Source: Mustelus asterias
Lineage: Eukaryota
Direction: 5' to 3'
NCBI RefSeq assembly: GCF_964213995.1
Contig: NC_135828.1
Coordinates: 30,442,001-30,506,000, forward strand
Length of the DNA stretch: 64,000 bases
Shown here: one piece after another, positions 14,787-59,020 of the stretch
Layout of the letters: the number at the start of each line of letters is the position of its first letter
How positions within the stretch are numbered: the stretch's first letter is position 1
The notes under the pieces: generated by a model
Databases searched by the model: none
Told to the model about the DNA's origin: nothing
Seen by the model: the letters and a program-made list of their open reading frames with translations, nothing else
Translations under genes and position numbers: made by a program

Positions 14787-14906
14787 TGCTGTTTTTCTGA
14801 CCCTTTCATCTCATAGACAAGGCTCTTCACGTGGCTTTGATCGATAGTATGCTGGGAATTAGGAACAATATCAAGTTTATAGAAGTTGCGCCTTTTTGCC
14901 ACAACA

Positions 14907-15063
14907 TGATATGGAGTTGCCGGCGTTGGACTGGGGTAGGCACAGTAAGGAGTCTCACAACACCAGGTTAAAGTCCGACAGGTTTATTTGGTCGCAGGAG
15001 CTTGAAGGGGCAACGCTCCGAAAGCTCGTGCAACCAAATAAACCTGTTGGACTTAACCTGGTC
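14907..15063. mobile_element. Penelope-like fold-back mini-element, copy 1 (degenerate)
   Basis: Same TGATRTGGAG(A/T)TGCCGGCGTTGGACTGGGG end as other copies; internal inverted repeat; flanked by TTGCCACAACA / TTGCCACTACA. Confidence 0.75.
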
Positions 15064-16501
15064 TTGCCACTACATGGCGCTGGATCTCCACTGTAGCCTG
15101 TGTCAAATATACCTCTTGGTTTCTCCTGTTTAGTGAACCGACTACATAGTCATTACAAAATTCAATGTATTTATTTGACTGATGGTTCTTATTTCCCAAA
15201 TGAACTCAAAAAATGTACATTTTTTCAAGCTGATGCGGTCGTCACGGATCTATCTTTGAAGCTGTCCTATTGCTTAAGGGCCTGTCACAAATAAATGGTA
15301 TCGACTGCAATAAAAATGTCATCTTGAAGTGCACGTTTACCGTAGCGTGTTTGACATAACATCGACCTCTCGTGATCTCCGACCTTTGCCTAAATTGTCA
15401 GACTGCGTATGCAACACTCAGTGCCCGATGAACAGGAACGGCCTGTGCGAAATTTCCTAGGGCAAAAAAAAAGTTGATTTCAATCCTCACTCCAAGTGCT
15501 GTCGCTTCGTTTAGACTCCGTCGCTTTCCATTGTAAATACAGACGCTGAACAACATTGCCAGGCAATTTAGTGTAATAACTAAATACGCCCGCAGAGCTC
15601 TTGTCATGCTTTATTGTGTATTTTTTCAGGGAATGCCATACTTACTGGCGAGGCCAAACTTTGCTACTGGTCCCTGGGAGGAAAGGCAGCGTTCAACCTC
15701 TTTTTCTTCCTTCATTCATGGGATCAGGGCGTGATTGGCTGGACAAACATTTATTCAACATCCCTAATTTCCCTCGAGAAGGTTGTAGCGAGCGGTCTTG
15801 TTGAATTGGTTTCGTCAATTTCTTCCCGTTCACAAGTTGTTATATCTGATCGGTCTGCTCGACCATTTATGAGTTCCTTTCGGAGTCACCAACACGTATA
15901 TCTGGGTGTGAACATAATAGACTATTGATCCAGGTTAATAGCCTTGTGGGAAGGGATCAAATCCAAGAAGATTAGCTGGTGAAACTAAAATTTAAGTATT
16001 GAAATTCGAAAACGTAAGGAATTGAAATTGAACAAACAAATCCATCATTGTCTGCTGCAAATAGGAACATCTGGTTTTCTAATGCCATTTTCCCAAGAAA
16101 ATTTGCCGCCACTTCCTGCGCTGCCTTGTGGCTTTTGCACCTCCAGTGATGTGGTGCAGCAAGCCGCTCAGTTAAAGGGAAATGAGGTCAAGAGCAGCAA
16201 ATAGCGGCCATGTGAATAAATAGAACATAAATAATACGCGCGGCAGTGAGACAGTCAGAGCCGCAGATGGAGGAATGTTAAGAGAGTAAATCACAGAGAT
16301 AAAAACAGGTTGGGGAGCAATTGATATGCTCAAATGAGGGATGAATGCAAACAACATAAAGTCACTTCCTTATATTCCTCACATTGCTTCAAATGGTTTG
16401 AAATTCATGGTTTGGTTATTTCCAGACGTCCTCTTTGCATTCTCGGCGCCTTACAGATCTAGAAGACTGTGAGCAGTATTGGTCTCCTTATATAAAGAAA
16501 T

Positions 16502-18981
16502 ATAGAAACATAGAAAAACTACAGCACAAACCGGCCCTTCGGCCCACAAGTTGTGCCGAACACATCCCTACCTTCTAGACCTACCTATAACCCTCCATCC
16601 TATTACGCTCCATGTACTCATCCAGGAGTACCTTAAAAGACCCTATTGAGTTCGCCTCCACCACCACTGACGGCAGCCGATTCCACTCGCCCACCACCCT
16701 CTGTGTGAAAAACTTCCCCCTAACATTTCCCCTGTACCTACCCCCCAGCCCCTTAAAACTGTGTCCTCTCGTAGCAGCCATTTCCACCCTGGGAAAAAGC
16801 CTCTGAGAGTCCACCCGATCTATGCCTCTCAACATCTTATACACCTCTATTAGGTCTCCTCTCATCCTTCGTCTCTCGAAGGAGAAAAGACCGAGCTCCC
16901 TCAGCCTATCCTCATAAGGCATGCCACTCAATCCAGGCAACACCCTTGTAAATCTCCTCTGCACCCTTTCAATCTTTTCCACATCCTTCCGATAGTGAGG
17001 CGACCAGAACTGAGCACAGTACTCCAAGTGGGGTCTGACGAGGGTCTTATATAGCTGCATCATTATCCCCGGACTCCGAAACTCAATCCCTCGATTGATA
17101 AAGCCAGCACACCATACGCCTTCTTAACCACCTCCTCCACCTGCGGGGCCGATTTCAGAGTCCTATGGACCCGCACCCCAAGGTCCTTCTGATCCTCTAC
17201 AGTACTAAGAGTCTTTCCCTTTATATTGTACTCCTTCATCCCATTTGACCTACCAAAATGGACCACGACGCATTTATTTGGGTTGACGTCCATCTTCCAC
17301 TTGTCCGCCCAGTCTTGCATCCTATCTATGTCCCTCTGAAACTTCTCACAACCCTCCAGACTATCCACAACCCCACCAACCTTCGTGTCGTCGTCAAACT
17401 TACCAACCCATCCCTCCGCTTCCTCATCCAGGTCATTTATGAAAATGACAAACAGCAAGGGTCCCAGAACAGATCTCTGGGGCACACCACTGGTGACCGA
17501 CCTCCATTTAGAAAAATACCCATCTATACCCACTCTCTGCCTCCTTTGGGCAAGCCAGTTCTGGATCCACCGGGCAGCAGCCCCTTGGATCCCATGCCCT
17601 CTCACTTTTTCCAGAAGCCTTGCATGGGGGACCTTATCGAACGCCTTTCTAAAATCCATATAAACCACATCTACCGCCTTCCCTTCGTCAATGTGTTTAG
17701 TCACATTTTCTAAGTACTCCACCAGGCTCGTAAGGCACGATCTGCCCTTGACAAAGCCATGCTGAGTATTCTTGAGCATACTAAACCTGTCCAAATGCTC
17801 ATATATCCTGTCCTTCAGGATCCTCTCCATCAGTTAACCAACCACTGAGGTTAGACTCACCGGTCGGTAATGACCTGGGCTATCCCTATTCCTCTTCTTG
17901 AAAATAGGAACCACATCCGCAATCCTCCAATCCTCCGGCACCTTTCCCGTCTCCATCGACGATGCAAAGTTCATCGCCAGAGGCTCTGCAATCTCTTCCC
18001 TCGCCTCCCACAGTAACTTGGGGTACATCCCATCTGGACCCGGTGACTTATCTATCTTGATGCCATTCAAAGATTCCAGCACAACCTCTTTGTTAAAGTC
18101 CACATACTCAATCCTTTCAGTCCACCGCACGCCCGCAGTACATCGAACCAGGTCTTTCTCCTCTGTGAAAACCGAGGCAAAATACTCATTGAGCACCTAT
18201 GCCATTTCTACTGGTTCCGTACAGGCTTTCCCGCCTTCACCTTTTATAGGCCCTATTCCTTCACGTCTCATCCTTTGACTTTTCACATATTTATAGAACG
18301 CCTTAGGGTTCTCCTTAATCCTACCTGCCAGGGCCTTCTCGTGACCCCTTCTGGCTCTCCTAATTTCCTTCTTTAGTCCCTTCCTACAAGCCGTATACTC
18401 TTCTAAATCCCAATCTTTGCTAAGCTCTCTGAGCCTTTTGTACACTTTCCTTTTCTTCTCGACTAGGTCCCGCACAGCTTTCGTGCACCACGGTTCCTTT
18501 AACCGACCAACACCACCCTGTCTGATCGGAACGTTGTCCTGTAGAACTCTAGGCAGACATTCCTTCAAAAACTGCCACCTCTCTTCAGTACATTTCCCCG
18601 AGAATACCTCCTTCCAATTTTCTCCTCTAATTTGCTGTCTAATGTCTTCATATTTCCCCTTACTCCATATAAACACTTTCCTAGCTTGCCTGATCCTCTC
18701 TTTTGCCAATGCAAGCCTAAAGGAGATAGAGTTATGATGGCTATCCCCAAGATGCTTTCCCACTGAGAGATCTGACACCTGTCCAGGTTCATTGGTCAGT
18801 ATCAGATCAAGTACTGCCTCTCCTCTTGTAGCCTTGTCTACATGCTGTGTCAGGAAACCCTCCTGAACTCACCTAACGAACTCTTCCCCATCCAATCCCC
18901 TTACCCTAGGGATATTCCAATCTATGTTTGGGAAGTTAAAGTCTCCCATCACAACAACTCTGCTATTACTGCATCTCTCCA
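16502..18981 (-). mobile_element. CR1 LINE, 5'-truncated, inserted into an older + strand CR1 fragment (about 16465-19106)
   Basis: RT and endonuclease ORF pieces 16581-18778. The flanks join to an old RT C-terminus (CEQYWSPY..EERLNNLGLDSLEF). Confidence 0.93.
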
Positions 18982-19499
18982 GTTGTTAGATTGGAGGCAT
19001 GTCAGTAAAGGTTCATTCTGTTGAATCCCGATATGGAGGGATTGTATCACGAGGAACGATTAAACAATTTGGGACTTGATTCACTGGAATTCAGTAGAAT
19101 GAGAGACTGGGTGTGGCAGGAGCTGTGCTGAAAACAATTGGGGTGTGATGGGCATGCCAGTCGGATGTATGGGCGGGTCTTTCAATCAGCGAATGAAGAA
19201 CTTGGACGCCTCCTCTCGAGGGCCGATTGGATTGTCAAGTAAATAAAGGTGGGTTTTAAGGGCGGGGTTGACTGTGCTGCAAATTTCGTTAGGATGCCAC
19301 GAGATTGGCTAACAGTGAGCTGAAATCCGGAAAGGGGGAATTGGCCTGGTAATTTGATGTTCGTGCGCAGCCGCTTTTTCTATGAATGTTCAAGGCTATC
19401 CACGTTTCAGGCCGCCATTTGCTCAAATCTTGCAAACCTCATGTATCCAGGCAACTAATAAACCGTGTAGTCTGTGCTCAGAAACCCTGAATTATGAAA

Positions 19500-20484
19500 A
19501 TGCGGACCTAGCTTTTGTTCTCCATCTCGCTCTTGTTCTTATTGGTGGGTAAGTAAATAAAAAAGTTGGCGTTACAGGAGGCATTTAGGGTTTCGAGTTG
19601 CAAGTCGCCAGAGATCCGGCAGATCAAGTGCTTAACAGAGGGACGTCGGGTGAAATCAGAAAAAGTGGTGAGAAAGAATGGATCAGAGGGAATGAGGGAA
19701 GTTAAGAATGAGGAAGCGAGCGACAGCCAGGTGAAAGACAGGAAAAGGATTGTCAAACAAATAATATTGTCCTGTCCAGTGACCAAGGAAGAGATACATT
19801 GATTTGGACAGATGAATTGAAGCTCCGACAATCCTTCATCGTAATAAAACGGGATCCCGGACACATATGCTCCTAACTAACAAAAAAAGCCTGCGAGTTT
19901 AGTCCATCTTTCTTGACTTATAAGGTTTTCCAAAAATATCATCTTCTGGGATAGAGCGGAGATATTTTTCACAAGATTGACAAAAGAAAATGAGGGCATT
20001 TGTTGCCTCTCGTAGTGTCATAATTTAATTTGACATTGACCATTGTGCATGATTGGTTCACTTGCTTTTTTTATTTCCCTATCATGAATTCTGCTAGCCA
20101 GAAATTCAAGTCTTTCAATCTGAGTTTTGGAAATTGTGCAATGCCAACACAACCGTCTCAATATCTTCTTGCTCTTGTTTTATTTGAGGGTTTGGCGAGT
20201 CTGAGAAGATCCTTCAGTCGCTCAAGTCTGTATCGGTCGGAGAGGCTGTGTAAATATCCCGTGCATCCAGTATGGGTCTGATAGTTGGATGTACTGGTAC
20301 CGTCAGTCACCGGTTCTGGGCTTCCAGAACATTCTTTCCGCAGTGCAGCGAGGTAAACCGACCAGGTCAGACGGTATCACGGATCGGTTCAACGCCCAGA
20401 AGACTGCAAATGGCTCCTTCCATCTGAAGATCAGGGAGGCACAGCCGAGAGATGCCGCTGGATATTTCTGCGCCTCCAGTGATG
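19500..20484 (+). pseudogene. TRBV: TCR V pseudogene V3, paralog of V1; leader 19500-19548, V exon 20189-20484
   Basis: Leader MRT*LLFSISLLFLLV (TAG 19509-19511). A 4-nt deletion in FR1 gives TAA at 20251; the downstream frame reads MYWYRQ..YFCASSD. Confidence 0.92.
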
Positions 20485-20515
20485 CACACTCGGGCTGACC
20501 CGTGCTACAAAAACC
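20485..20515 (+). other. Defective RSS of V3 (8-nt deletion)
   Basis: CACACTC + 15 bp + ACAAAAACC; the V1 spacer aligns with 8 nt missing. Confidence 0.88.
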
Positions 20516-20569
20516 CCAAACCGTCTTAGACGCCACCCCTCAGAGGTTATAAATATATAAAATTTATAA

Positions 20570-23500
20570 ATATATAAAAAGGAATAGAGTGGCTAGAGTG
20601 AATGTTGGACCCTTGGAGGACGAGAGGGGGGAGTTAATAGTGGGAAATGAGGATATGGCTGAGTCTTTAAATCAGTTTTTTGTGTCGGTCTTCACGGTGG
20701 AGGACACAAATAGTTTGCCAAATATTAACGATAGAGGGTTGGCAGCAGGAGAAATACTTAATACAATTAATGTTACCAGAGAGGCAGTGCTGGGTAGACT
20801 AATGGGACTGAAGGTGGACAAGTCCCCAGGTCCGGATGGAATGCATCAAAGAACAAAGAACAAAGAACAATACAGCACAGGAACAGGCCCTTCGGCCCTC
20901 CAAGCCCGCGCCGCTCCCCGGTCCAGGATTGAATCCTGAATCCAGGATCCCCGCCCAATTTTCCAGCCTATCTACATACCAATATCCTATCCACCGAGCT
21001 GTCCCTCACAGCTACGATGCTTTGTTCATTACAACCTATTAACTCACCCCCACCCCCCCATTCCAGACCATGTGATCTCCAGGGAGAGGCGAAAACCCAG
21101 AGTGAAAACCCCAGGGCCAATATGGGGAAAAGAAATCTGGGAAATTCCTCTCCGACCCCCTGAGGCGATCGAAACGAGTCCAGGAGATCACAATGGCCCT
21201 GATCGGAAAATGCTTCCCAACCCTAGTCATTTCCACTTCCACGAACACCATATGAATTCCCTGCCCCCGAGACAGGTTCCCAACTATCCGAAGTCTCGCT
21301 CTGTACTGGCACCAGCAAGATGATCATAGAATGAAGCCTTGAAACGAGAAACAAGGAACAATTAGCCCGCGCCGCTCCCTGGTCCAGACTAGACCACTCT
21401 TTTGTATCCCTCCATTCCCACTCCGTTCATATAGCTGTCTAGATAAGTCTTAAACGTTCCCAGTGTGTCCGCCTCCACCACCTTGCCCGGCAACACATTC
21501 CAGGCCCCCACGACCCTCTGTGTGAAATATGTCCTTCTGATATCTGTGTTAAACCTCCCCCCCTTCACCTTGAACCTATGACCCCTCGTGAACGTCACCA
21601 CCGACCCGGGGAAAAGCTTCCCACCGTTCACCCAATCTATGCCTTTCATAATTTTATACACCTCTATTAAGTCTCCCCTCATCCTCCGTCTTTCCAAGGA
21701 GAACAACCCCAGTTTCCCCAATCTCTCCTCATAACCAAGCCCCTCCATACCAGGCAACATCCTGGTAAACCTCCTCTGTACTCTCTCCAAAGCCTCCACG
21801 TCCTTCTGGTAGTGTGGCGACCAGAACTGGACGCAGTATTCCAAATGCGGCCGAACCAACGTTCTATACATCTGCAACATCAGACCCCAACTCTTATACT
21901 CTATGCCCCGTCCTATAAAGGCAAGCATGCCATATGCCTTCTTCACCACCTTCTCCACCTGTGACGTCACCTTCAAAGATCTGTGGACTTGCACACCCAG
22001 GTCCCTCTGCGTCTCTACACCCTTTATGGTTCTTCCATTTATCTTGTAGCTCCTCCCTACATTATTCCCACCAAAATGCATCACTTCGCATTGATCAGGA
22101 TTGAACTCCATCTGCCATTTCCTTGCCCAAATTTCCAGCCTATCTATATCCTTCTGTAGCCTCTGACAATGTTCCTCACTATCTGCAAGTCCTGCCAGTT
22201 TTGTGTCGTCCGCAAACTTACTGATCACCCCAGTTATTCCTTCTTCCAGATCATTTATATAAATCACAAACAGCAGAGGTCCCAATACAGAGCCCTGCGG
22301 TACACCACTAGTCACAGGCCTCCAGCCGGAAAAAGACCCTTCCACTACCACCCTCTGTCTTCTATGACCAAGCCAGTTCTCCACCCATCTAGCCACCTCC
22401 CCCTTTATCCCATGGGATCCAACCTTTTTCACTAGCCTACCATGAGGGACTTTGTCAAACGCTTTACTAAAGTCCATATAGACAACATCCACGGCCCTTC
22501 CTTCGTCAACCATTTTGGTCACTTCTTCAAAAAACACCACCAGGTTAGTGAGGCATGACCTCCCTCTCACAAAACCATGTTGACGATCGTTAATGAGTTT
22601 ATTCCTTTCTAAATGCGCATACATCCTATCTCTAAGAATCTTCTCCAACAACTTCCCCACCACGGACGTCAAGCTCACCGGCTTATAATTACCCGGGTTA
22701 TCCTTCCTACCCTTCTTAAATAACGGGACCACATTGGCTATCCTCCAATCCTCTGGGACCTCACCTGTGTCCAGTGACGAGAGCAAAGAAGAAGAGCACT
22801 CTGGGGGAGGACGACCTCACTGAGCCTGGGGGTCTGGAGTGCTTATACTTCAATGCAAGGAGCGTAGCAGGTAAAACAGACGAACTTGGGGCCTTAATGC
22901 GCATGAGGAATTTGGATGTGGTTGCGGTGACAGAGACTTGGTTGAAAGAGGGACAGGACTGGCAGCTGAATATTCCAGGGTACAAGTGTTTTAGGCGAGA
23001 CAGAGGAGGGGCCAAAAGAGGTGGGGGAGTAGCGGTATTGGTTGGAGAGCATATTACAACGGTGCAGAGGGAGGACAATTCGGAGTAGTCGTGTAGCGAG
23101 TCACTCTGGGTGGAGCTTAGAAACAGGAAAGGCGTAGTCACTATGTTGGGGGTGTACTACAGGCCCCCCAACAGCCCAAGGGAAGTGGAAGAATGGATAT
23201 GTCAGGAGATACTGGATAGGTGCAGGAAATATAGGGTTGTTGTAATGGGAGACTTCAATTTCCCTGGTATAGACTGGAAATCGCTGAGGGCAGGGACTCT
23301 GGATGGGGAGGAATTTGTAAAATGTGTACAGGAGGGTTCGTTGGAACAATATGTGGACAGCCCAACTAGAGAGAGGGCTATACTTGACCTGGTACTGGAG
23401 AATGAGCCCGGTCAGGTCTTCAAAGTTTTGGTTGGGGAACATGTGGCAAATAGTGACCACAATTCTGTTAGCTTTAGGATAGTGATGGAAAAGGATGAGT

Positions 23501-25800: not shown

Positions 25801-26187
25801 ATTAATGGACTATTTAGTTCATAGGCATTCAGATGGATGGAGACGGTGGATAGATGAGCAGATAGATGGACCGATAGATACATAGAGAAATAGACTGAGA
25901 CATGCAGAGAGATAGACTTTAGAGAAAACTGATGGTTACGCACCCTCCTGGAATTGGCTGTCGCTGACCCCTACCCACACCGCCGGTTTATAAACCGTTT
26001 CTCCTGTCCTTATGTGGCAGATGGTTCCGCTCTCTTGATCCCCCTCACTTCTCCATTTCATACCGCGGGCTCCAGCTGACATTTGTATCTCCCTTTCGCA
26101 CCCATTATTTTGGTTATGTTGCCCTATTGTCTCTCCCCATCTCCCAGTCTCCCCTCAATCATGTAAAATGAAAAAAATTCCTTTCAG

Positions 26188-26490
26188 AGTTTTTATTTGC
26201 AAGGGATCCCTACCGTTTTGCAAAGTCACTGATTTCTTAACGGTAGCCGCCCGCGAACAGTGACTGTGAGGTTTTATCTGCAGTAATATCATCCCAGAGT
26301 ATTGTGATATCGACAGAGTCCAAACAAGTCCTCCGAATTCCGCACCTCCGTGCGTGAGACAGAGACTGGCGCGAGATACGAGGAGTACTCAGGGTATGGT
26401 CGGCAGCAGGGGAACAGACAACTACCACTTTAAGCTGTCCCAGCTGCAGCCCAGTCACTCGGTTGCGTATGGATACGGATCGCTGGCCAT
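26188..26490 (+). pseudogene. Degraded V relic of a family not otherwise seen here
   Basis: IPTVLQS..TVTVRFYLQ*..VL*YRQSPNKSSEF (Trp to stop at 26305), then after a frameshift YHFKLSQLQPSHSVAY. Confidence 0.6.
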
Positions 26491-26609
26491 GGATAATTTC
26501 AGGAACACACGGCGACTTGCTCTAAACACCACAGTCGGCGCTTGGAGATATCAACAGAGCGGTCCAAACCGTTTGATATCTTGTCATTGCATTTTGGATG
26601 AACCTGAGG

Positions 26610-26897
26610 CAGATTCACCGTTGAAGGACATAGCTTTAAATTGAGGGGTGACAGATTTTGGACAGATGTTAGAGGTAGGTTCTTTACTCAGAGAGTAGTA
26701 AGGGCGTGGAATGCCCTGCCTGCAGCAGTAGTGGACTCGTCAACATAAAGAGCATTCAAATGGTTATTGGATAAACATATGGATGATATTGGAATAGTGT
26801 AGATTAGAGGGGCTTTAGATTGGTTCCACTGGTCGGGGCAACATCGAGGGCCAAAGGGCCTGTACTGCGCTGTAATGTTCTATGTTCTATGTTCTAT
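26610..26897 (+). mobile_element. CR1 3' fragment
   Basis: Matches the 3' end of 51187-53669; (TTCTATG)n tail. Confidence 0.9.
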
Positions 26898-27019: not shown

Positions 27020-27050
<31 letters not shown>

Positions 27051-46389: not shown

Positions 46390-47195
46390 ATGTACAGGAG
46401 CCTGTTTTTGCTTCTTCTCCCGGGTGAATGTTTGTTACTTATGTTACTTATGTAGATAATTTGACTGACCTCATTCTGATTTTGGAAACACGGATTTTGT
46501 GTCGCTTCATAAACAATTCAGCTTGTGTGGATTGCTTATGGCTTTCGGTTGGTGAGGCAAAATAAATACAATGCCACAGAGGAAACTTGGATTCATGTTC
46601 GAATGAGAAATGTTTTCCGGACTGTGGCTCAAGGTTGTGGGGCTAGGAGTAACTTGACAGTTCCTTCAGCGTTGAACTGTGTTTCTGAAAATGGCTATAT
46701 CTTTTGATCTAATAAGATATTGTTAAACTTTTAAAAGTATCTGTATCAAACGCGTCTTTTCCATAATGTTGCCGAACATTCCAATCGAGGCAGAGTTGGC
46801 AGCTGTAATTTAGTAAATTGACAAAAACATTCTTGCCATTCTTATTGTCCCAGTTCACATTTGATCTGATCTCTTTCTTATCTGCTTCCCCAGCCCCTTG
46901 TAGGAGTGCCCTCTTGTTCCATTGGTGGAAACGGTTGTCCGTTGTACAGGGGAGTACAACGGAGATGAATTGTTACCAGAACGATACCGACCATAGCTAC
47001 ATGTATTGGTATCGCCAGCGCAGTGGAGCGGGCTTGCAGCTCATAGTGAACTCAATTGGCGTCTCAAAACCCACGGTTGAAGAAGGTTTCAAGGAGAGGT
47101 TTAAAGCCAGCAGACCCAGTTTGAAGTCATGCAACCTGAAAATACAGAGCGTGGAGCCGACTGACACTGCGCTCTATTACTGTGCTGCGAGTGAG
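46390..47195 (+). CDS. TRBV: TCR V gene V5, apparently functional; leader 46390-46423, V exon 46894-47195
   Basis: Leader MYRSLFLLLLP-G|gtgaat; open V ..HWWKRL..MNCYQNDTDHSYMYWYRQ..DTALYYCAASE. Confidence 0.92.
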
Positions 47196-47234
47196 CACAG
47201 TGACTCAAGGGGATGCAAACCCTGGTCAAAAACA
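47196..47234 (+). other. 23-RSS of V5
   Basis: CACAGTG + 23 bp + TCAAAAACA. Confidence 0.93.
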
Positions 47235-47940
47235 TAACTGCCTGCGACGCTGTTTGCCGCAAGTTCCGAAAACACCAGTAAATATTGCTTAAAAAACAAA
47301 CTGACATTGACGTCGTTAGGCGCCGTTTCCAACAACAAACACATTGGATATTTTTTTTCCATAGCCTCTCAGCACTGCCTGAAGTACATTTCGAAATTCA
47401 TGCCCCAACCACGTACTTTCCAAGCACAAATCGAGGAGCCTTGATGATGCGTGCGAGTACTTAAGACAGCGCAATTATCTCAACCTACCTCGCCTGTTCA
47501 AATCTCCTTTATATTTTATCTCGCTGGCTCTCATTTCACAAAGAGCAGCTAAGTAATTCATTGCAAATACATTTCCATATTTCATTTGAAAATTACTACC
47601 GCGTCTCCTGAATGTTTTCAGGCAATGCTTTCCAGCTTTTTATAACTCAACATGTTAAAAAGGCGAAGCATCTCATCATCTACGGGCCTTTTAATTTGAT
47701 CTTTAATCGGTGTCGTGTGTTAGCCAGTCTTGGTGCTAATATAAATGTTTGTCCTTACTCTCGAGGAAAACCTCATCAATGAATTTAAAGTGAAAAATAT
47801 CATCGTCTTCACTGACTGGATGTTGAGAATCACCATAATCACTGCCCCCTGCTTAAAATGAAAGCAGTTTCTCCTGATTTACTCAATCAAAACTCTACAT
47901 ACATTCTATAATTTCCATGTGTTCTGCTCGGCATTCTCCT

Positions 47941-47977
47941 TCACCTGACGAAGGAGCAGCGCTCCGAAAGCTTGTGG
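47941..47977 (+). ncRNA. Minimal type-I hammerhead ribozyme motif in a Penelope-like LTR fragment
   Basis: tcac-CTGACGA-a-GGAGC-agc-GCTCC-GAAA-GC-TT-gtgg: stem I, core, stem II and palindromic loopless stem III. Confidence 0.72.
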
Positions 47978-48529
47978 TTTCAAATAAATGGACTATAGCC
48001 TGATGTCGCGTGATCTCTCATCACATCGAGAAGGCGAAGGATAACGTTATATTCCCATGTATTGTTTTACCAGCATTCCCGATTTTTAAAAACTGATTTA
48101 TAACATTCGCAACGTTCCCTTTGTTAGTTAGAATTGCAGAGGCTTCACTGGCTTTTCAGCTAATGGAAATTCCCGAGATAGATTACGGTGAGCAAACAAG
48201 GAACCCACTAATTGACGACTGAACTTGGAAACATCATCACCTGGAAGTTCCCCTTCACGCCATCCACCGCACTGACATGGAGATAAATCGTCCTTCTTCA
48301 CGATTGCTGAGCCGAAATTATGCAATTCCCTCCCTCACCGCAGTGTGTGTCTGCCGACTCAACATGGACTGCAGGAGTTCAAGAATGCAGCTCACCACGA
48401 CCTTTGGGGCTGGCCACCCCGGTGGCGCCCACATCCCATGAATGAAATAAACTAATAACATGTCAATCGTTCGAACTTTACAACCATCCCCATCGTCCGC
48501 ATATATTGAGGATTACAAGATATCGGCAG

Positions 48530-48850
48530 GTGCATAGGAACAAAGGAACAAACGAACAGGTTTGGGACATTCAGCCCATTGAGCCAGCTCCACCATTCAA
48601 TGAGATCATGGCTGATCTGTACATTTGGCCATATCCCTTAGCACCTTTATCAATGTCAAATTTGGAGATAGCAACTGATCTAACGTTAACTGCCTATTGT
48701 GGAAAAGAGTTCTAACACTCCATCACCACTTGCATGTACAAATGCTTCCTAACATGTGTCGTGAACGGTCTGGTACTATTTTCTAGAAAATACCCCCAAA
48801 TTCTAGAATGTAAAATCAGTGCTCTGCCTTTTCCTGTTAATATCTTGAAG
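48530..48850 (-). mobile_element. Old CR1 3' fragment
   Basis: Degenerate tail (CATTCAGCCCATTGAGCC..CCATTCAATGAGATCATGGCTGATC). Confidence 0.65.
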
Positions 48851-48952
48851 ACTCTGCGTTCTCTACTTCATTGTTATTCTTGCAGTTGCACGAAAAGGAA
48901 TCATCCAATCTGCTTGAATACAGAGGGAGAAAGCTATTGGGTGATCTTGCAA

Positions 48953-48960
48953 TGACGTCA
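48953..48960 (+). promoter_or_regulatory. CRE/decamer element of V6, displaced by a CR1 insertion
   Basis: CTTGCAATGACGTCA; about 106 bp from the ATG once the insertion is removed. Confidence 0.65.
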
Positions 48961-49120
48961 GACACTTTAGGAACATTTAAGCGGTTATTGGATAGGCACA
49001 TGGAGCACACCAGGATGGTAGGGAGTGGGATAGCTTGATCTTGGTTTCAGATGAAGGTCGGCACAACATCGTGGGCCGAAGGGCCTGTTCTGTGCTGTAC
49101 TGTTCTATGTTCTATATGTT
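48961..49120 (+). mobile_element. Short CR1 3' tail inserted in the V6 promoter
   Basis: Matches the reverse complement of about 10135-10292. Confidence 0.9.
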
Positions 49121-49218
49121 CACCTAAACGAATCACGAGATTCGGGGGCAAACGGACTAAAACAAGTGAGAGTTGTTCAAGACTGAGACGTTGAAAGGAC
49201 GGTTGAACTTCTGTGATA

Positions 49219-50673
49219 ATGCTGTCTGCTGCTTTCCTGCAGGCTATCTGCCTGCTGTTCCAAGGTAACATTTCATCCTGCTAATTTAGACCAATCTTTA
49301 TCTGGGTTTGGCTCCTAACACTCGGTACCAAAGACATAATGGGGCAAGTCATTTAGTAGGTTCCTTCTTTGTTCCCAACAATTCTACTCCGGAATTTGTA
49401 TTAGCTGCAAAGCCAGTGAAGCATCTTCTGCAATTTCAACTTTAAAAAAGGGATTTTGAGGAATTTCTAACTGGGTAAATAAAAGCATGATGTGGAGATG
49501 CCGGCGTTGGACTGGGGTAAGCACAGTAAGAAGTCTCACAACACCAGGTTAAAGTCCAACAGGTTTATTTGGTAGCAAATACCATAAGCTTTCGGAGCTT
49601 GCTGCTCCTTCGTCAGATGGAGTGGTCTCTGTGTATGACAGAGACCACTCCATCTGACGAAGGAGCAGCAAGCTCCGAAAGCTTATGGTATTTGCTACCA
49701 AATAAACCTGTTGGACTTTAACCTGGTGTTGTGAGACTTCTTACTGTAAATAAAAGCAACCAGGATAGATGGTAAAAGGTTTAGGGACATAATTAATTGT
49801 TAAGCTTGTTGAAGCTGTTTTTATTTTTAAAAATCTCAGGGTTTGTGCCAAAATTTAGTTTCCATCTCTAATTTTTCCAGAACGGTGTGTGGCCAGCCGC
49901 CTTCTAGCACTGCTTGCAGAGGTAAGGTTGGCAATATCGATTGCTAAACAATCTCATTCTGTATTCATATCTCATTTTTTTCAAGTATTTGTAATCGACG
50001 TTTTCGCTTGACCATGGCAAAAAATGCATTCGTTAGGCTCGAGATCCTTTATTGCTCAGATCGGTGAATAACACCGATAATAAATCGCTGGACTGGCCAT
50101 GGGTGCGAAGCAAGGCAACCGAGGCCGCGTATGCAGCGGGAAATATGGGCAACTGATTGGCATTTTTTTTCGCTGAGTGACTTTTATGGCGGTCAAATCT
50201 ACCTACTTGGCTTCGTTCCGGTGTGAACTTGGCGCAAAAGAATGACCCGTTGCCTGAAAGGCGAGCGGAACGACCAAGAGGTCCATCGTGTGATATGACA
50301 GAAAAATGCTTTTATGTTCTTCGTGTAACACTCCCTAATAGATCCGATCCCTTTCTGATGTCTCTCCACAGTTGGCTGCAGGTGCACTCTCGTATCCCAG
50401 TGGTGGAACCGATTGACCATTGAAAAAGGGAAGACGACGGAGATGCACTTTTATCAGAACGGCAGTGGCGATAGCTACGTGTATTGGTATCGTCAGCACC
50501 TCGGAGCAGAACTCCGGCTCATAGTCACCACCATTGTAGGTTCAACCCCCATGTATGGAAAGGGTTTCACGGAGAAATTTGATATCAGCAGACCCAACCT
50601 TAAGTCGTGCAGCCTGAAAATACAGAGAGTGGAACCGTCGGACACTGCTGTCTATTACTGCGCTGCTAGTGAT
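49219..50673 (+). CDS. TRBV: TCR V gene V6, open frame but first Cys replaced by Phe; leader 49219-49264, V exon 50372-50673
   Basis: Leader MLSAAFLQAICLLFQ-G|gtaaca; V ..SQWWNRL..EMHFYQNGS (TTT at 50449-50451)..WYRQ..YYCAASD. Confidence 0.88.
49582..49620 (-). ncRNA. Minimal hammerhead ribozyme motif (minus-strand mirror copy)
   Basis: Exact reverse complement of 49650-49688. Confidence 0.7.
49650..49688 (+). ncRNA. Minimal hammerhead ribozyme motif, sense to V6 pre-mRNA
   Basis: ccat-CTGACGA-a-GGAGC-agcaa-GCTCC-GAAA-GC-TT-atgg. Confidence 0.72.
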
Positions 50674-50712
50674 CACAGTGACACAAAGCGGTGCCATGCA
50701 AGCTCAAAAACA
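50674..50712 (+). other. 23-RSS of V6
   Basis: CACAGTG + 23 bp + TCAAAAACA. Confidence 0.93.
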
Positions 50713-51183
50713 TACTACCATGCATTGCCAGAAAACGACAGTACAGAAAACTCAAATAAATCTATTTTTGCTGACAGCACTTCTTTTTTGTGGTCTATTT
50801 GTTTCCTCTTGCGAATATAACCTTGTGTGAGACGTATTTGCAGTGTATGACCCGGCATCCATTATTTAAAGGGGGATTTAATCCATGCGAGGGTTCAACA
50901 GACCTGTTGCTTCTGGAAAAGAAGCAGTTAGGTGTTCTGCCACTAGCGAATTCTTTGATTTGTGATGCTCAATATCCGTCACGAATAAGCAACAGGTTTT
51001 TTACGTAATACAACAACTTATTTTTGCATTGCGCCTTTTTTATATAATGGAAGATCGTGATGTTTTTCCCATGCGTATTATTAATCTAATTTGATGCCGA
51101 GTCACTTATAGAGTTAGCAAGTCAGATTAGTCAAAACTTGGCAAACATATACATGTTATCGTGAATGAAGAAACCAAGGAACC

Positions 51184-53669
51184 AAGATGATTCTGGATAG
51201 GAGCGAAAGTAACAGGGTAGTTGTTATGGGGGACTTTAACTTTACAAATATTGACTGGAAAAGCTATAGTTCGAGAACTTTGGAGGGGTCGGTTTTTGTC
51301 CAATGTGTGCAGGAAGGTTTCCTGACACAGTATGTAGATAGACCAACAAGAGGCGAGGCCACATTGGATTTGGTACTGGGTAATGAACCAGGCCAGGTGT
51401 TAGATTTGGAGGTAGGTGAGCACTTTGGTGACAGTGAACACAACTCGATTACGTTTACCTTAGCTATGGAAAAGGATAGGTATATACCAAAGGGCAAAAG
51501 TTATAGCTGGGGGAAAGGAAATTATGATGCGATTCGGCGAGATTTAGCTAGCATAGGTTGGGGAAGGAAACTGCAGGGGATGGGCACAATTGAAATGTGG
51601 AACATGTTCAAGGAACAGCTGCTACGCTTCCTTGATAAACATGTACCTGTCTGGCAGGGAGGAAGCAGACATGTGAGGGAACCGTGGTTTACTAAGGAGG
51701 TTGAATCTCTTGTGAAGAGGAAGAAGGAGACTTATGTAAAGATGAGGCGTGAAGGCTCAGTTAGGGAGCTTGAGAGTTACAAGTTAGCCAGGAAGGACCT
51801 AACGAAAGAGTTAAGAAGAGCCAGGAGGGGACATGAGAAGTCTTTAGCAGTTAGGATCAAGGAAAACCCTAAAGCTTTCTATAGGTATGTCAGGGGTAAA
51901 AGAATGACTAGCGTAAGATTAGGGCCAGTCAAGGACAGGAGTGGGAAGTTGTGCATGGAGTCTGAAGAGATAAGAGAGGCACTAAATTAATATTTTTCGT
52001 CAGTATTCACACTGGAAAGGGACAGTGTCGAGGGGAGTACTGAGATGCAAGCTGTTGGACTGGATGGGATTGATGTTCATAAGGAAGAGGTGTTAGCAAT
52101 TCTAGAAAGGGTAAAAATAGATAAGTCCCCTGGGCCGGATGGGATTTATCCTAGGATTCTCTGGGAGGCTAGAGAGGAGATTGCAGAGCCTTTGGCTTTG
52201 ATTTTTGGGTCGTCATTGTCTACTGGAACAGTGCCAGAAGACTGGAGGATAGCAAATGTTGTCCCCTTGTTCAAAAAGGGGAGTAGGGACAACCCTGGTA
52301 ATTATAGACCGGTGAGCCTTACTTCTGTTGTGGGGAAAGTATTGGAAAGGATTATAAGAGATAGGATTTATAATCACCTGGAAAGGAATAATTTGATTAG
52401 GGATAGTCAGCACGGTTTTGTAAAGGGTAGGTCGTGCCTCACAAACCTTATTGAGTTCTTTGAGAAGGTGACCAAAGAGGTGGATGAGGGTAAAACGGTT
52501 GATGTGGTGTATATGGATTTCAGCAAAACGTTCGATAAGGTTCCCCATGGTAAGCTTTTGCGGAAAATACGGACACATGGGATTGAGGGTGATTTAGTGG
52601 TTTGGATCAGGAATTGGCGAGCTGGAAGAAAACAGAGGGTGGTGGTTGATGGGAAATATTCATCCTGGAGTTCAGTTACTAGTGGTGTACCACAACGATC
52701 TGTTTTAGGGCCACTGCTGTTTGTCATTTTTATAAATGACCTGGATGAGGGCGTAGAAGGATGGATAAGTAAATTTGCGGATGACACTGAAGTCGGTGGA
52801 GTTGTAGACAGTGCGGAGGGAAGTGGCAGGTTACAGAGGGACATAGATAAGCTGCAGAGCTGGGCTGGGAGGTGGCAAATGTAGTTTAATACGGAAAAGT
52901 GCGAAGTGATTCACTTTGGAAGGAGTAACAGGAATACAGAGTACTGGGCTAATGGTAAGATACTTAGTAGTGTGGATGAACAGAGGGATCTGGGTGTCCA
53001 TGTGCATAGATCCCTGCAAGTTGGCACCCAGGTTGATAGGGTTGTTAAGAAGGCGTACGGTGTGTTAGCTTTTATTGGTAGAGGGATTGAGTTTCGGAGC
53101 CAGGAGGTCATGTTGCAACTGTACAGAACTCTGGTGCGGCCGCACTTGGAGTATTGCGTACAGTTCTGGTCGCTGCATTATAGGAAGGATGTGGAAGTGT
53201 TGGAAAGGGTGCAGAGCAGATTTACCTGGATGTTGCCTGGTATGGTGGGAAAATCGTATGAGGAAAGGCTGAGGGGCTTGAGGTTGTTTTCGTTCGAGAG
53301 AAGAAGGTTAAGAGGTGACTTAATAGAGGCATACAAGATGATCAGAGGATTAGATAGGGTGGATAGTGAGAGCCTTTTTCTACGGATGGTGATGGCTAAC
53401 ACTAGGGGACATAGCTTTAAATTGAGGGGTGATAGATATAGGACAGATGTTAGAGGTAGGTTTTTTACTCAGAGAGTAGTAAGGGCGTGGAATGCCCTGC
53501 CTGCAGCAGTAGTAGACTCGTCAACATTAAGAGCATTCAAATGGTTATTGGATAAACATATGGATGATATTGGAATAGTGTAGATTAGATGGGCGTTAGA
53601 TTGGTTTCACTGGTCGGCGCAACATCGAGGGCCGAAGGGCCTGTACTGCGCTGTAATGTTCTATGTTCT
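51184..53669 (+). mobile_element. CR1 LINE, 5'-truncated, with stops
   Basis: ORF pieces 51187-51990, 52045-52884 and 52906-53583; absent from copy A. Confidence 0.95.
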
Positions 53670-55707
53670 CAGGCAAAGAGGAGGAAATTGGTAAAGCCGC
53701 AATTTGAGAGCATGTGGCCTCGGCGACGAAAGGCAGAATTATTAATCTTGGAACAGCCATAATTGGGAATTTTTTCATTGGTTAGTGGAGCATAGATATT
53801 ACAAAGACTTAGGTGGTGGACGTCACTTAAAGATATATGATGCAAGGCCATGGAAAGTTTAAAAATGCATAATTTCAAAATCAAAGTGTTTCTCAATCAG
53901 CACTCAGTGTCAGTCAGTGGCCATAGTGGCACGACCTGTTGTGAGTTAATACACATGGGCAGCAAAGTTCCTGATGGCCTCAGCATTGTGAATGGTAGCG
54001 TGTCGAAGAAAAGCAAGGAGAGCTGGCAAAGTTGAGTCTGGAGACAAGAAAGGCGTGGGTGAGTGTTTCAGCAGCAGAAGAATTGAGACAGTGTGGAATT
54101 GGAAATAGAAGACAAGAGTGATGGATCACAGAGTGAATGATAAGGTGATAGGACGAGGTGATTAACCAATGACTCCCTGTGTAAATTCCTATTGGGTTGA
54201 CAAAAGTGGAAATTATATCTTGGGTTTGCTCGAATATATAAGATCTGCATGGATTGACAGCAACGTTTGCAGCAAGTTGCCACAGTTACAGCACAATTTA
54301 CATTGATTAATTAAAAGTTGTTCTAAGGAGAGGAACGTTTCCGAAACTCTTCGAATTGTACTCATCATGATAAAGGCAAAAGTGTCGATTTTGAAAGGAA
54401 CATGGCAATGAAAAGTACCATGAGAACAATAATTCTAATTGCATAACAAGTACACGCCGATTGGCTGAGGCGTTGCCAAGGAGAAAGTAAGCGAGATAAC
54501 ACTGGTTGCTAATTGAAAACAAAAGTGCAGTCGTAAACATTTTTTCCCGATAGAATAGAGGTAATTGCCTATAAATTAGTGTCGCATCCTGCAAGCCCCA
54601 TTGCGAGTTGTCTGAAAATTAATTAACCAAATGCAGTCATAAGGGCACTATTAGTTTCGGAAGGTTTTCTTAAGGATCAGGAAATAATACGCCAAGTGAT
54701 GGCATAAACAACAGAGCACGAAACGTTTAAGACAGATGGATAAATACTTTAAAAGGTAGCGCATATTGCATTGTTCGGAATGAGCAGACGCGGATGAGCA
54801 GGGCGGCACGGTCGCAGAGTGATTAGCTCCCTTGTCTCCCAGCGCCAGGGTCCTACGTTCAATTCCGCATTGGGGTTACTGTCTGTATGGGGTTTTCAGG
54901 GTCTGCTTGGGCTTCCTCCCACAGTCCGAAAGACGTTCTGGTTTGGTGCATTGGCCACGCTAAATTCTCCCTCAGTGCATCTGGACAGGCTCCGGAAGGC
55001 GGCTGCTAAAGGATTTTCACAGTAAATTCGTCTTAATTTCAACTTACTTTAACTGTTTAGATGAGGCGACTGGTCGTTTTGGTCAGCGTTGCTTCCATTC
55101 CCGTTCTGGCTGAGGTTATTGATAAAGGCCCCGCCTTATCAAGCTTGCTTCTCAGCTGAGGGTGAGATGCTTTAGAGATTGATTGCAGATTCGATGGCAC
55201 TTCTGCAGTGTAGGGATTTTATGAATCAATGATTGCATGTGGTGTAAGTGCCACCCATGGATTTGAGCCCAAGATTTTGAAATAGGGGCAGCATAGTCAA
55301 CAATAGACAATGGATGCTTTTGGCCATTATAACAAAGAATCACAGGGATGTCGTCCTTGATGTCAAACAACGATAATGCGATATCACTGAAAATTACGTA
55401 TAAAGCCTCACTCATGGGGTGAGTGTTAGTTTGAGGAAAATAGACTCAGCAATTGCATTGCAACAGTTTGTTTACTTTTTAAGCGCTCTTGAGCGCAAAG
55501 GTGCTGATTGGGAGTGAGACCGTAGGAATGGCAACGAAAATTCAACGTTCCTTCCCTGGAAGATAGAATGATCACTGGTATGACTATACACTCTGGCAAT
55601 CAGTTGGACTATCAATGTAGAATGTTTCATTTTCCAGTTTACAGCGTCTCTCTTCCTCAATGGGAGTTCCAGATCAATGTCTTGTCGTCACTATTTTGTT
55701 GTGTACC

Positions 55708-56751
55708 ATATACAGGAGCCCGTTTTTGCTACTTCTGTAAGAAGTCTCACAGCACCAGGTTAAAGTCGAACAGGTTTATTTGGCAGCAATAGCTTTCGGA
55801 GCCCCAAGCCCCTTCTTCAGGTGAGTGAGGACTCGTGTTCCCAAATAGGGCATATAAAGACACAAACTCAATTTACAAGATAATGGGTGGAATGCGAGTC
55901 TTTACAGGTAATCAAATCTTAAAGGTGCAGACAATGTGAGTGGAGAGAGGATTAAGCACAGGTTAAAGAGATGTGTATTGTCTCCAGCCAGGGCCTGTCT
56001 GGTGTTATGAGACTTCTTACCGTGCTTACCCCAGTCCAACGCTGGCATCTCCACATATTTGCTACTTCTCCCAGGTCAATGTTCCTACTTATGCAGACAA
56101 TTTGGCTAACCTCACTCTGGTTTTGGAAACACAGATTGTGTCGCTTCATAACCAATTCATTGTATGTGGATTGTTTATCGCTTTCGTCAATAGTCTAAGT
56201 TGTTCCCGTCTGCATGGCATTGTGCGATCGGTTGGTGAGGCAAAATAAATATTCATGTTTGAATGGGAAATGTTTTCAGGACTGTTGCTCAAGATTGCGA
56301 GGCTAGGAATAACTTGACAGCCCCTTCAGGGTTGAGTAATCGAATTGATTCGGAACTGTATAATTGTGTTTCTGAAAATGACTATATTGTTTGACCTAAT
56401 AAGATATTGTTTTACTTTCAGAAGTCTCTGTATTGAACTTGTCTTTTTCGTGAAGTTGCTAAATATTCCCGTCGAGGCAGAGTTGGGCAGCTCTAATTTA
56501 GTAAGTTGGTTGACGCTAGAATTCCACAGGCATCACACTGTGGCAATGAGTATCGCTCTATTCCTGCCAAAATTGAACTGAAGGGATGCTATGTGTTCAA
56601 TAATTCCAATTCTATTGGTTCAAGTAGGTGGTCGACTGAGGTGTAAATTGTGAAAATTTGCAAAGAATATGCTTGCCGAGAATACAGCGATTGTAACTTT
56701 TGGATTCTGCTGTCTAGTGATTCAAACCGGTGCCGTGCTAGGTCAAAAAAC
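55708..56751 (+). pseudogene. TRBV: Destroyed paralog of V5/V6
   Basis: Leader ATA-TAC-AGG-AGC.. (start lost) split by an insertion; intron homologous to V5; V exon mostly lost. AGTG + 23 bp + TCAAAAAAC at 56716-56751, and the 3' flank matches V6. Confidence 0.75.
55737..56057. mobile_element. Penelope-like mini-element, copy 3 (opposite orientation), inside a leader exon
   Basis: TTTGCTACTTCT duplicated at 55725-55736 and 56058-56069; hammerhead-like core on minus at about 55788-55824. Confidence 0.82.
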
Positions 56752-57634
56752 ATACTACCATGTGTTGCCAGGAGACGACAGTGCAGAAAACTCAAATATG
56801 CTTCTCTCTCATAAACAACGTGTTCATTGATGGAAATTGTCCGTTTCGCAACAGCCTTCCGACTGGATAAAACAATCCCTTCGTCTCTAAAGGAATACCT
56901 CGGTGAGAATTCAAAATAAAACACACACGTTCAATACTTTCCAAGGCAGAAGAATTGTTTCGGGTGAAACGTGGACTTGCATGGGACAGAAGTTTCAATT
57001 CGGCCTATCGTACGTCTTCCAAACTGCTTGATATTTCTTCTCATTGCTTCCATTTACGCTACGGCGGAAAATGTGTCAAAATGGCTTCTAAATTTTATTT
57101 CTGAATATGCTTCCTGCAACATGACATCCATGCGCCACACAACTGATTTTTAAAAAATCAACCTTCCCCTTTCGACTCTTCTGAATCCTCGGTTCGGCCA
57201 ACTTACTGCTAAGCGAAAGTAACCCGAACCCTCATGTACAAAATCAAAATTCAACTTGATTTGGAATATGTCTAGTGGATCCCGCCTGGGCGTTTCCTGC
57301 CTAATAATGGAAGTCCTTGCTTCTACATTGCCACTTGCAGTGTCGGATAAGGGCAACATTTTGTTGGGTCACCTCTTCATTCTGGGTTACCTGCTGAGAT
57401 GCCGAATGGAGCAATGCAGCGAGTTCGAGGAGATTCTCCAGCGTTTTATATGGCTCTCCATATAACACGCATATCCGATCCGTTTGAATATTATAAACGG
57501 CCGCCTGGGAAGAAATGCAGATTGAAATAAATCATCCACATTTATTGCTCTCCCATGACCACAAAAGAAAGGGGAATCGGCATTGTTTGGTGTAGCGAGC
57601 GGGGTGGGGGCAGGTGTTTTCAGTCTTCTTGACA

Positions 57635-57647
57635 TGACGTCATTTCC
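57635..57647 (+). promoter_or_regulatory. CRE/decamer element of V7
   Basis: CTTGACATGACGTCATTTCC, 110 bp before ATG 57745. Confidence 0.75.
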
Positions 57648-57744
57648 ACATCAAACCGAACACAGTGCTCAGGGGCAATAAGATCGTAGTGTACAAGAGC
57701 AGGACGGAGTTGAAAGGCTGGCAGGACATTTACATTCTTGCACC

Positions 57745-59020
57745 ATGCTGTGTTCGGTTTACCTGGATCGATTTTTGCTGCTACTGCTGTTGCCAGGTTA
57801 CTTTTCCTCTTTGCAAAACACTTGGGACCAGTGGGAACCTGCGTTTAGCAATTTCTATTCTTGGTGGCATAGAAATATTATAATCAGTTCGATGATTTAC
57901 AGGCCCCGTTACTGTTTCAAGTAGTGAGTTGACTTGCTCAAACGCGCTTTGACTGTAAAGGTTGGTAAAGCACAATTATGATGTGGAGATGCCGGCGTTG
58001 GATTGGGGTGAACACAGTAAGAAGTCTCACAACACCAGGTTAAAGTCCAACAGGTTTATTTGGTAGAAAATCCGATAAGCTTTTGAAGCACTGCTCCTTC
58101 GTCAGATGGAGTGGCAATGTGATCGAAAGCTTATGGTATTTGCTACCACATAAACCTGTTGGACTTTAACCTGGTGTTGTGAGACTTCTTACAAAGCACA
58201 ATTAGACATACCTTGCAATATAAAGCTGCCTAAAGTTCCAAATGAACGCTATTTGTGGGACTGTTTGCAAAGAGCATAAGTGAAGAATTAATTTTTTATC
58301 TTCATCAAAGAGCTTTCACAGGCACTGGTGGCCGAATGTATATTCTCAGCTGCATCAGTATATGATTAACTCAATTCATTCCTTTCGTGCCTTGCCTTTG
58401 AAATATATATTTAGCCAAGCTTGTTGCTTGCATGTTAGCTGAAAGTTTCAGTGCCTGGCCAGCAGATGTGGTTATATTTCCCGCGGCAGTGAGTAGCGGC
58501 ATTCAGTCCCGCCAGGTTTACGATGCAGGGCTATACGGCCATGGCGGAGCTGTGGAGTAATCGTATTATTATTATTGTTATTATTATTTGCAGCCGCTGA
58601 GTACTCAATTTGTTGGAAATGCAAATTGAGCGAACGTTGTGTGTGTTTTGAATGAAAATGAATCGCTATCCTTATGTTAACGGTTCATAATTGACCCGAT
58701 CTCTTTTTTGTCACGTAGCTGGCTGCAGGTGTGCCTTTGTTTACCAGTGGTGGAACCGGCTGTCCGTCGGCAAGGGTGAGACGGTGGAGATTCACTGTTA
58801 CCAGAACGATACCAGCGAGATGTACATGTACTGGTATCGCCAGGAGAGTGGGGCAGGTTTGCAGCTCATTGTCACCTCGGTTGTAAATTCAGAGCCCAGT
58901 CATGAAAAAGGTTTCGAAGGAAGGTTTCAACTCACCAGACCCGATACCAAGTCGTGCAGCCTGAAAATACAGAACGTGGTGCCGAATGACACTGCAGTGT
59001 ATTACTGCGCTGCTGGTGAT
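57745..59020 (+). CDS. TRBV: TCR V gene V7, open frame but defective RSS; leader 57745-57796, V exon 58719-59020
   Basis: CACCATG; leader MLCSVYLDRFLLLLLLP-G|gttact; V ..YQWWNRL..IHCYQNDT..WYRQ..YYCAAGD. Confidence 0.88.
57979..58192. mobile_element. Penelope-like fold-back mini-element, copy 4, in the V7 intron
   Basis: AAAGCACAATTA duplicated at 57967-57978 and 58193-58204; inverted arms; degenerate hammerhead core on minus (GAAA to AAAA). Confidence 0.85.

Follow-up and report, generated by a model that had tools for sequence, protein, structure and literature searches.

Fold-back insertions at a shark TRBV locus as probable truncated, inverted ends of an abundant Neptune-type Penelope-like element

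What are the short fold-back insertions found among the TRBV genes of this locus, and did they enter V-gene leaders and introns by preference or by chance? The window, that is, the whole 64-kb stretch of DNA analysed, contains four of them, which we refer to as stumps. We consider it highly likely that they are truncated, inverted ends of an abundant Neptune-type Penelope-like element (PLE), that chance probably accounts for their presence in V genes, and that they probably persisted there because the host genes are defective.

A search for the 30-mer at the shared end, allowing up to 3 mismatches, gave four matches in the window (14907, plus; 49488, plus; 56029-58, minus; 57979, plus) and none in 100 shuffles. 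Stump 1 (14907..15063, minus strand, 157 bp) comprises the tail, an arm of 90 nt and a second, short arm in inverted orientation. It is intergenic, about 1 kb downstream of the pseudogene V13617, and its 13-bp left TSD (14896..14908, plus strand; right copy 15064-15076) shows one mismatch between the copies and overlaps the element end by 2 nt. Stump 2 (49488..49745, minus strand, 258 bp) joins a 35-nt single-copy tail to a perfect 110-bp hairpin with a 5-nt loop, and is bounded by a 13-bp TSD (left copy 49475..49487, plus strand; right copy 49746-49758). Stump 3 (55737..56057, plus strand, 321 bp) has a tail-less inverted arm of about 260 nt and a tailed arm of about 60 nt between 12-bp TSDs (55725-55736 and 56058-56069), while in stump 4 (57979..58192, minus strand, 214 bp; 12-bp TSDs at 57967-57978 and 58193-58204) the tailed arm exceeds the tail-less arm in length. 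The original prediction of four insertions with one common end, each with its own direct duplication, is borne out, except that it overlooked a fifth, older piece, a fragment of a PLE pLTR at 47939..48006 (plus strand) whose minimal hammerhead core is intact. The other end, described there as variable, is nearly fixed: in three of the four stumps the inverted arm ends at 36-39 nt from the tail, and it is the internal turning point that varies.

In organism B, a related species, a contig proved empty at both sites examined: 271 bases (258 + 13) are skipped at 49488 (run X4) and 226 (214 + 12; runs X4 and X5, one sample) at 57979, and stumps 2 and 4 are therefore genuine lineage-specific insertions. 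Together with the separate TSDs, this supports independent and recent events. The insertion sites in the host genes V50371 and V58718 lie 4 columns apart in a global alignment, but a common ancestral insertion was rejected: the alignment of the two introns does not rise above noise (60.5% vs. 57.8% when shuffled; local score 23 vs. a null of 21.8), each site has a different TSD, and organism B has neither insertion. The unique flanks of the insertion sites were thinly covered in sequencing runs X3, X9, X10 and X14.

Full-length copies of the element exist, with 892/893-aa ORFs that carry RT and GIY-YIG, which supplies the autonomous partner sought by the original prediction. RVT_1 scored above its cut-off on these ORFs, whereas GIY-YIG matched C-terminal pieces at E values of 2-3e-4, 0.3-1.3 bits below cut-off, and was not listed on the full ORFs; a C-terminal endonuclease with a CX2-5CxxC linker and a CCHH motif was read in the translations. 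The available portion of PMC8557442, which defines the Neptune-clade domains, describes the same single ORF with RT, a CX4CxxC linker, a C-terminal GIY-YIG with an internal Cys pair, and a vertebrate host. By these motifs the element is a predicted autonomous PLE of the Neptune type. The arm of stump 2 shares 97% identity with the pLTR of L071, a copy that bears the ORF, and across the stumps the identity to the ends of copies coding for RT and endonuclease is 87-97%. As in EN+ PLEs, pLTRs flank the ORF, with an optional inverted 5' copy; in copies spanning the pLTR-ORF junction the tail continues into the ATG of the ORF, and the fixed end of the stumps is the ORF start. Judged from sequence, the stumps are thus apparently 5'-truncated, head-to-head inverted ends of this autonomous PLE. 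The proposed Penelope-like identity and inverted arrangement are supported by the RT/GIY-YIG ORFs and by the genome-wide fold-back layout.

The pLTR origin also extends to the hammerhead motifs. An intact core (CTGAnGA with paired stems I and II) was found by pattern only at 49488, where each arm carries one on opposite strands, and in the older 47939 piece, in agreement with the minimal hammerhead that had been proposed. The claim that the cores are intact or decayed applies to 49488 (intact) and to 55737 (stem I broken) and 57979 (GAAA changed to AAAA), although not to 14907, from which CTGAnGA is absent altogether. In an Rfam scan of 47800-58400, hammerhead families were absent at E<=10 and the matches were limited to miRNA-like hairpins below threshold. 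Monomer folds of four hammerhead regions did not exceed shuffles in stability, a comparison that says little about a dimer-dependent motif. As far as the available text of PMC4209133 goes, minimal PLE hammerheads share the CUGAnGA, the extra nucleotide ahead of stem II, the G-C closing pair, the GAAA, the 4-bp stem I and a palindromic stem III that requires a dimer; the stumps differ in having two copies on opposite strands, with the motif broken or missing in three of four. Because of this opposite orientation, a tandem hammerhead dimer is impossible in the stumps. The hammerhead would be a passenger of the pLTR; the hairpin of a stump would enclose it, and in most cases it is broken.

Genome-wide, pattern counting found the shared end 46,993 times as an exact copy and 142,564 times as a near copy; a word-based search with a 113-nt arm had returned 0, very common words being skipped. 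The expectation is therefore about 2.5 copies per 64 kb (2.48 vs. 4 seen, P=0.24), and the 464 kb around the window hold 22 copies against 18.0 expected (P=0.20). We analysed the structure of 94 sampled loci (97 less 3 duplicates). The fold-back layout was present in 56, two of which (L093 and R-187566) are probably two neighbouring insertions each. Adjacent TSDs were found in 48 of the 56 (null, 4/300), with a length of 11-13 bp in 37 and a mode of 12 bp, so that the predicted duplication length applies across the genome. The tail-less arm stops 33-40 nt from the tail in 44/56, and the 30-40-bp tail is on a single end only, as in EN+ PLEs. Lengths grade into one another between 120 and about 1,000 bp (full range 120-1,242 bp, median 270 bp), and arms extend into the ORF. 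No identical centre was shared among the 56 fold-backs; 7 of the 1,540 pairs were roughly colinear, all with gaps. The available portions of PMC8557442 and PMC3846280 (Adineta Pen2/Pen2a) describe the same complex EN+ PLE insertions: head-to-head inverted pLTRs, the second copy inverted and 5'-truncated, a 30-40-bp tail at one end, a palindromic junction, a short TSD and heavy 5' truncation. The differences are that TSDs are 11-13 bp here, as opposed to 8-10 bp in Adineta, and that most copies here, of which there are more than 140,000, are cut down to 120-1,000 bp.

For the origin of the fold-backs, we lean slightly towards a two-ended priming mechanism as a whole. A nuclease would cut the target with a stagger of about 12 nt, and each freed 3' end would prime reverse transcription on RNA from one common source element, the outer start site yielding the tailed arm and the inner start site the tail-less arm. 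Both cDNAs would halt early and be linked through short stretches of self-complementarity or micro-homology, so that the centre of the hairpin differs every time. In favour of this route, the same subfamily 9-mer is present in both arms in 39/50, vs. 0.38 expected under independent draws. In the available part of PMC11167929, two RT start sites bound the tail in vitro, and both strands are cut and extended. Poseidon of Anolis carolinensis (PAc), studied there, likewise has two fixed ends bounding the tail and a minimal hammerhead in its pLTR, but belongs to the Penelope/Poseidon clade and has its start sites 111-118 nt inside the ORF, whereas the outer end here lies at the start codon.

A snap-back origin, in which the first cDNA folds back and is copied until 33-40 nt from the primer, is a possible though less probable route, and would leave the identity of the element unchanged. 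Self-priming of this kind is proposed in the available text of PMC3846280. Near-equal arms were found in 38/56 fold-backs and some centres are non-templated and symmetric (e.g., 49488), both of which snap-back or later palindrome repair explains at least as easily; the arms also share some private variants and their subfamily. However, in 11/56 fold-backs, six of them TSD-bounded and 55737 among these, the tail-less arm exceeds the tailed arm, a pattern beyond the reach of simple snap-back copying. Several centres have a loop of 0-1 nt, and the inner end coincides with the second of the RT start sites that PMC11167929 demonstrates in vitro for a Poseidon element; these too speak against snap-back. 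A search for twin priming with inverted Penelope-like elements, covering few subscription journals and no supplements, returned nothing. The mode of PLE integration is still unsettled in the available portions of the cited PLE papers, and thousands of recent TSD-bounded hairpins, with a 12-nt stagger, two start sites and either arm longer, form a natural record of it.

Three stumps had been placed in the leader exon or intron of V5-family genes, and the placement stands, although the host of 55737 is only a relic leader without a V exon. TRBV gene V50371 (49219..50712, plus strand; leader 49219-49264, intron 49265-50371, V exon 50372-50673, 23-RSS), which holds stump 2, has an open frame, but Phe in place of the first conserved Cys. 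The relic (55710..56520, plus strand), a paralogue of V46893, retains a leader with ATG changed to ATA and an intron, beyond which only RSS-nonamer-side sequence remains (56716-56798). V58718 (57745..59053, plus strand; leader 57745-57796, intron 57797-58718, intact V exon 58719-59020) holds stump 4 and has an RSS heptamer short of 2 nt, without its CAC. Among TRBV genes, 4/8 defective and 0/9 intact ones carry an insertion (P=0.029; P=0.06 without the gene broken by the insertion itself).

Alternatively, the insertion came first: a hairpin in the leader intron, with a 70-110-bp stem and a poly(A) signal, would first impair TRBV splicing or stability, and the heptamer or Cys codon would decay afterwards. 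Stump 2 does form a 110-bp stem (-218 kcal/mol, z -34.7), and all four insertion-carrying TRBV genes are defective. In V58718, both the insertion and the heptamer loss postdate the split from organism B, in which the site is empty and the heptamer intact, so this gene cannot have been dead for long when the insertion occurred. However, 4/8 defective TRBV genes have no insertion in the gene body, V50371 and V58718 retain intact splice sites, and the order of events is not readable from one genome. We regard this reading as unlikely. It is equally improbable, in our judgement, that the fold-back insertions thin out the T-cell repertoire of the shark, with a leader-intron hairpin silencing a TRBV gene and the RSS or structural Cys being lost later, repeatedly in one V subgroup since the sister-species split. 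If the hairpins in leader introns came before the V genes were lost, antigen-receptor genes of a cartilaginous fish would be turned over directly by the action of a retrotransposon; as found, the locus is another one dotted with a very common repeat, and of small significance.

Even less probable is a preference of the element for V-gene 5' regions, or a true local insertion hot spot in the V5-like subgroup. For comparison we used 58 RSS-bearing IgH, IgL and TCR-alpha/delta-like V genes (70 less 2 duplicates and 10 without an RSS), a set that is redundant (13-40 clusters), has short leader introns and is biased to intact genes because they were chosen as the best Pfam scorers, and background regions (18 picked, less 3 nonexistent). 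No copy was present in the 141 kb upstream of these 58 genes, where 5.5-9.4 were expected. Outside this set, at the RSS-less locus L122, a copy lies 683 bp upstream. Of 31 insertions, 8 fell inside the V cluster (P=0.28), and the pooled V test gave 3 against 1.2-6.5 expected (P 0.11-0.96). TRB alone showed a nominal excess, with 3 insertions in about 12.7 kb of leader and intron against 0.49-1.10 expected (P=0.014-0.099, with 8/17 lengths assumed). The relevant background is below the all-ages figure, because two insertions postdate the split from organism B. The 24-kb V5-like subgroup has 6 insertions, which reach P=0.005 post hoc but 0.15 when scan-corrected; 4/6 of its genes are affected. 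The insertions other than the three in leaders or introns lie outside 5' regions, in a V exon and intergenic DNA. Its insertions belong to different PLE subfamilies, and organism B lacks both of those tested. The suggested favouring of V 5' regions was thus not upheld: enrichment in TRBV leaders and introns over background is nominal and confined to TRB, and genome-wide density, named in advance as the explanation that would count against it, accounts for the number seen. Germline transcription of V segments takes place in lymphocytes, while inherited insertions need germ cells or the early embryo. Literature searches on shark PLE catalogues, shark TRB loci and TE enrichment in TRBV introns, covering few subscription journals and no supplements, yielded nothing on this PLE family.

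The original prediction had favoured a non-autonomous family. That the hairpins form such a family, self-contained like MITEs or retrozymes and multiplying as whole units, is largely refuted and extremely improbable: the stumps are ORF-less, TSD-bounded and short, but their identity to the ends of coding copies, their continuous lengths, one-sided tail, arms reaching into the ORF and lack of any identical centre all oppose it. MITE membership was rejected, as internal structure and length are not shared. The animal non-LTR retrozymes in the available text of bioRxiv 10.64898/2026.07.22.740005 are likewise pLTR-derived, hammerhead-bearing and ORF-less; those, however, are head-to-tail tandem units, whereas each of the four copies in the window is a single head-to-head insertion with a unique centre, and membership in that class was rejected as well.

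The 30-base end of the element matched the window four times at ≤3 mismatches, compared with none in 100 shuffles. The four insertions, at 14907 (157 bp), 49488 (258 bp), 55737 (321 bp), and 57979 (214 bp), were each flanked by their own 12–13-bp direct repeat, and an older fifth fragment of the element lay at 47939. Contigs of a related species (organism B), approximately 95% alike, allowed empty-site comparison at two sites: a contig from run X4 skipped 271 bases (49475–49745), and contigs from runs X4 and X5, both of one sample, skipped 226 bases (57967–58192), with the element absent in each case. Because both gaps equal the insert plus one repeat copy in length, they prove that the 49488 and 57979 elements inserted with target duplication after the split from the organism B lineage. 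The independent duplications of the original prediction were thus confirmed; of its fixed end and variable opposite end, only the former stood, as both ends were nearly fixed and the centre was the variable part. The predicted CTGAnGA–stem II–GAAA cores were intact only in 49488, whose minimal hammerhead is located within a perfect 110-bp stem, and decayed in 55737 (stem I broken) and 57979 (GAAA broken), while 14907 lacked CTGAnGA altogether. The four elements are real insertions, of a known class and in a known layout.

Among 94 copies with a tail (72 taken from the beginning of another contig, C1, and 22 from the TRB region, after removal of three duplicates), 56 had an inverted arm within 1.5 kb. 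These fold-backs were 120 to 1,242 bp long; the tail-less arm stopped 33–40 nt from the tail in 44, and 48 had an adjacent target site duplication (TSD), compared with 4 of 300 mismatched controls. This agrees with the Penelope-like element (PLE) layout of an inverted 5'-truncated copy plus a 30–40-bp tail in PMC8557442. The PLEs in PMC3846280 are likewise head-to-head palindromes, but with TSDs of 8–10 bp, whereas ours were mostly 11–13 bp (37/48). At G000:C1:152232030-152232485, three tail plus ORF-start matches at 214-bp spacing formed a head-to-tail tandem of terminal repeats (pLTRs), possibly retrozyme-like. Five other loci (L195, L201, L204, L208, and L213) carried 70–100 nt of the ORF start before apparently returning to pLTR sequence, suggesting short pLTR-ORF-pLTR mini-units.

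Some tail-bearing loci extended into RT, a CX4CxxC linker, and a GIY-YIG domain, with the tail running on into the ORF start codon. The anticipated autonomous partner was found at L221 and L222, genomic loci with open ORFs of 892 and 893 aa, each between two pLTRs. A separate non-autonomous family, as originally proposed, has no support: ORF-bearing copies share the pLTR (97% identity between the 49488 arm and that of L071), and no identical centre was found in any two of the 56 fold-backs. Judged from its sequence, the element would be of Neptune or Nematis type under the domain definition of PMC8557442; vertebrates are reported to carry the Neptune type (bioRxiv 10.64898/2026.07.22.740005).

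In vitro, according to PMC11167929, an anole Poseidon element cuts and extends both target strands, and reverse transcription begins at two sites bounding the tail. Fold-backs would arise if the target were cut with a stagger of about 12 nt, each end primed reverse transcription from one of the two start sites, with RNA of one source element as template, and both syntheses ended early before the ends joined in the middle. We lean slightly toward such two-ended priming because 11 of 56 fold-backs had a tail-less arm that exceeded the tailed one in length (6 of these TSD-bounded, including 55737) and a subfamily 9-mer was common to both arms in 39/50. Snap-back synthesis of the second arm would also yield near-equal arms, which predominate (38 equal, 7 with a shorter tail-less arm). 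Our literature search found no paper on twin priming in PLEs.

Across the 3.68-Gb genome, the 30-base end had 46,993 exact matches and 142,564 near ones (38.7 per Mb). Against this density, the 64-kb window held 4 copies versus 2.48 expected (P=0.24), and the 464 kb fetched around it held 22 versus 18.0 (P=0.20); by BLAST, all fragments amounted to 31 insertions in those 464 kb versus 13 in an arbitrarily chosen background of 150 kb. The suggested preference for V 5' regions has no support. TRB leaders and introns (about 12.7 kb) were nominally high, with 3 insertions versus 0.49–1.10 expected (P 0.014–0.099), and a 24-kb V subgroup held 6 (P=0.005 post hoc, or 0.15 after scan correction); the whole V cluster showed no enrichment (8/31 insertions, P=0.28). 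From 70 V-set loci elsewhere, 68 were unique and 58 carried a recombination signal (RSS); these 58, which collapse to 13–40 clusters and are biased toward intact genes, had no copies in 141 kb of upstream DNA versus 5.5–9.4 expected. Pooled with TRB, 3 copies were seen versus 1.2–6.5 expected. Three loci (L127, L121, and L122) lacked an RSS and had J-like ends joined to their V-set exons, a pattern that fits germline-joined Ig genes; at L122, a PLE piece lay 683 bp upstream.

V-set exons with 23-spacer RSSs, followed by D and J segments, place the window in a TCR-beta locus, and the gene types point to a shark or relative as host. An insertion was present in 4/8 defective and 0/9 apparently intact TRBV genes (P=0.029), or in 3/7 defective genes with the split gene left out (P=0.06). 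The first conserved Cys is missing from V50371, the V relic hosting 55737 lacks both start codon and V exon, V58718 has lost two heptamer bases, and the next V exon (window 63959-64000 plus L051:1-2900) is split by a longer copy of the same PLE. Relaxed selection accounts for this pattern most simply. V58718 of organism B has an empty site and a complete heptamer, however, so insertion and gene loss fall on the same short branch, in either order; the one novel reading, less probable, would be that the insertion came first.

The splitting copy comprises an inverted arm reaching into the ORF, a nested LINE, the tail, and a 12-bp TSD. A further copy with a tail is located at L051:3319-3720. Six genes make up the putatively V5-like subgroup (window 46390-59053 plus L051); just two, V46893 and that at L051:5165, appear intact, and the introns of the subgroup have diverged almost to noise level. 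Other TRBV pseudogenes lie at 13617-13913 (in-frame stop) and 20214-20483 (5' frameshift, short RSS). On G000:C69, from approximately 23 kb ahead of the window to 152 kb beyond it (L031-L070), the whole locus is compact: it contains 15 V units in forward orientation, a D with a 23-RSS approximately 21 kb past the window end, and then five J-like segments. Another 100–150 kb on, one J-like segment and two V genes lie in inverted orientation, one of the V genes being intact and the other frameshifted. A large share of the window consists of long LINE-like repeats, both at 51150-53670 and at numerous other positions.
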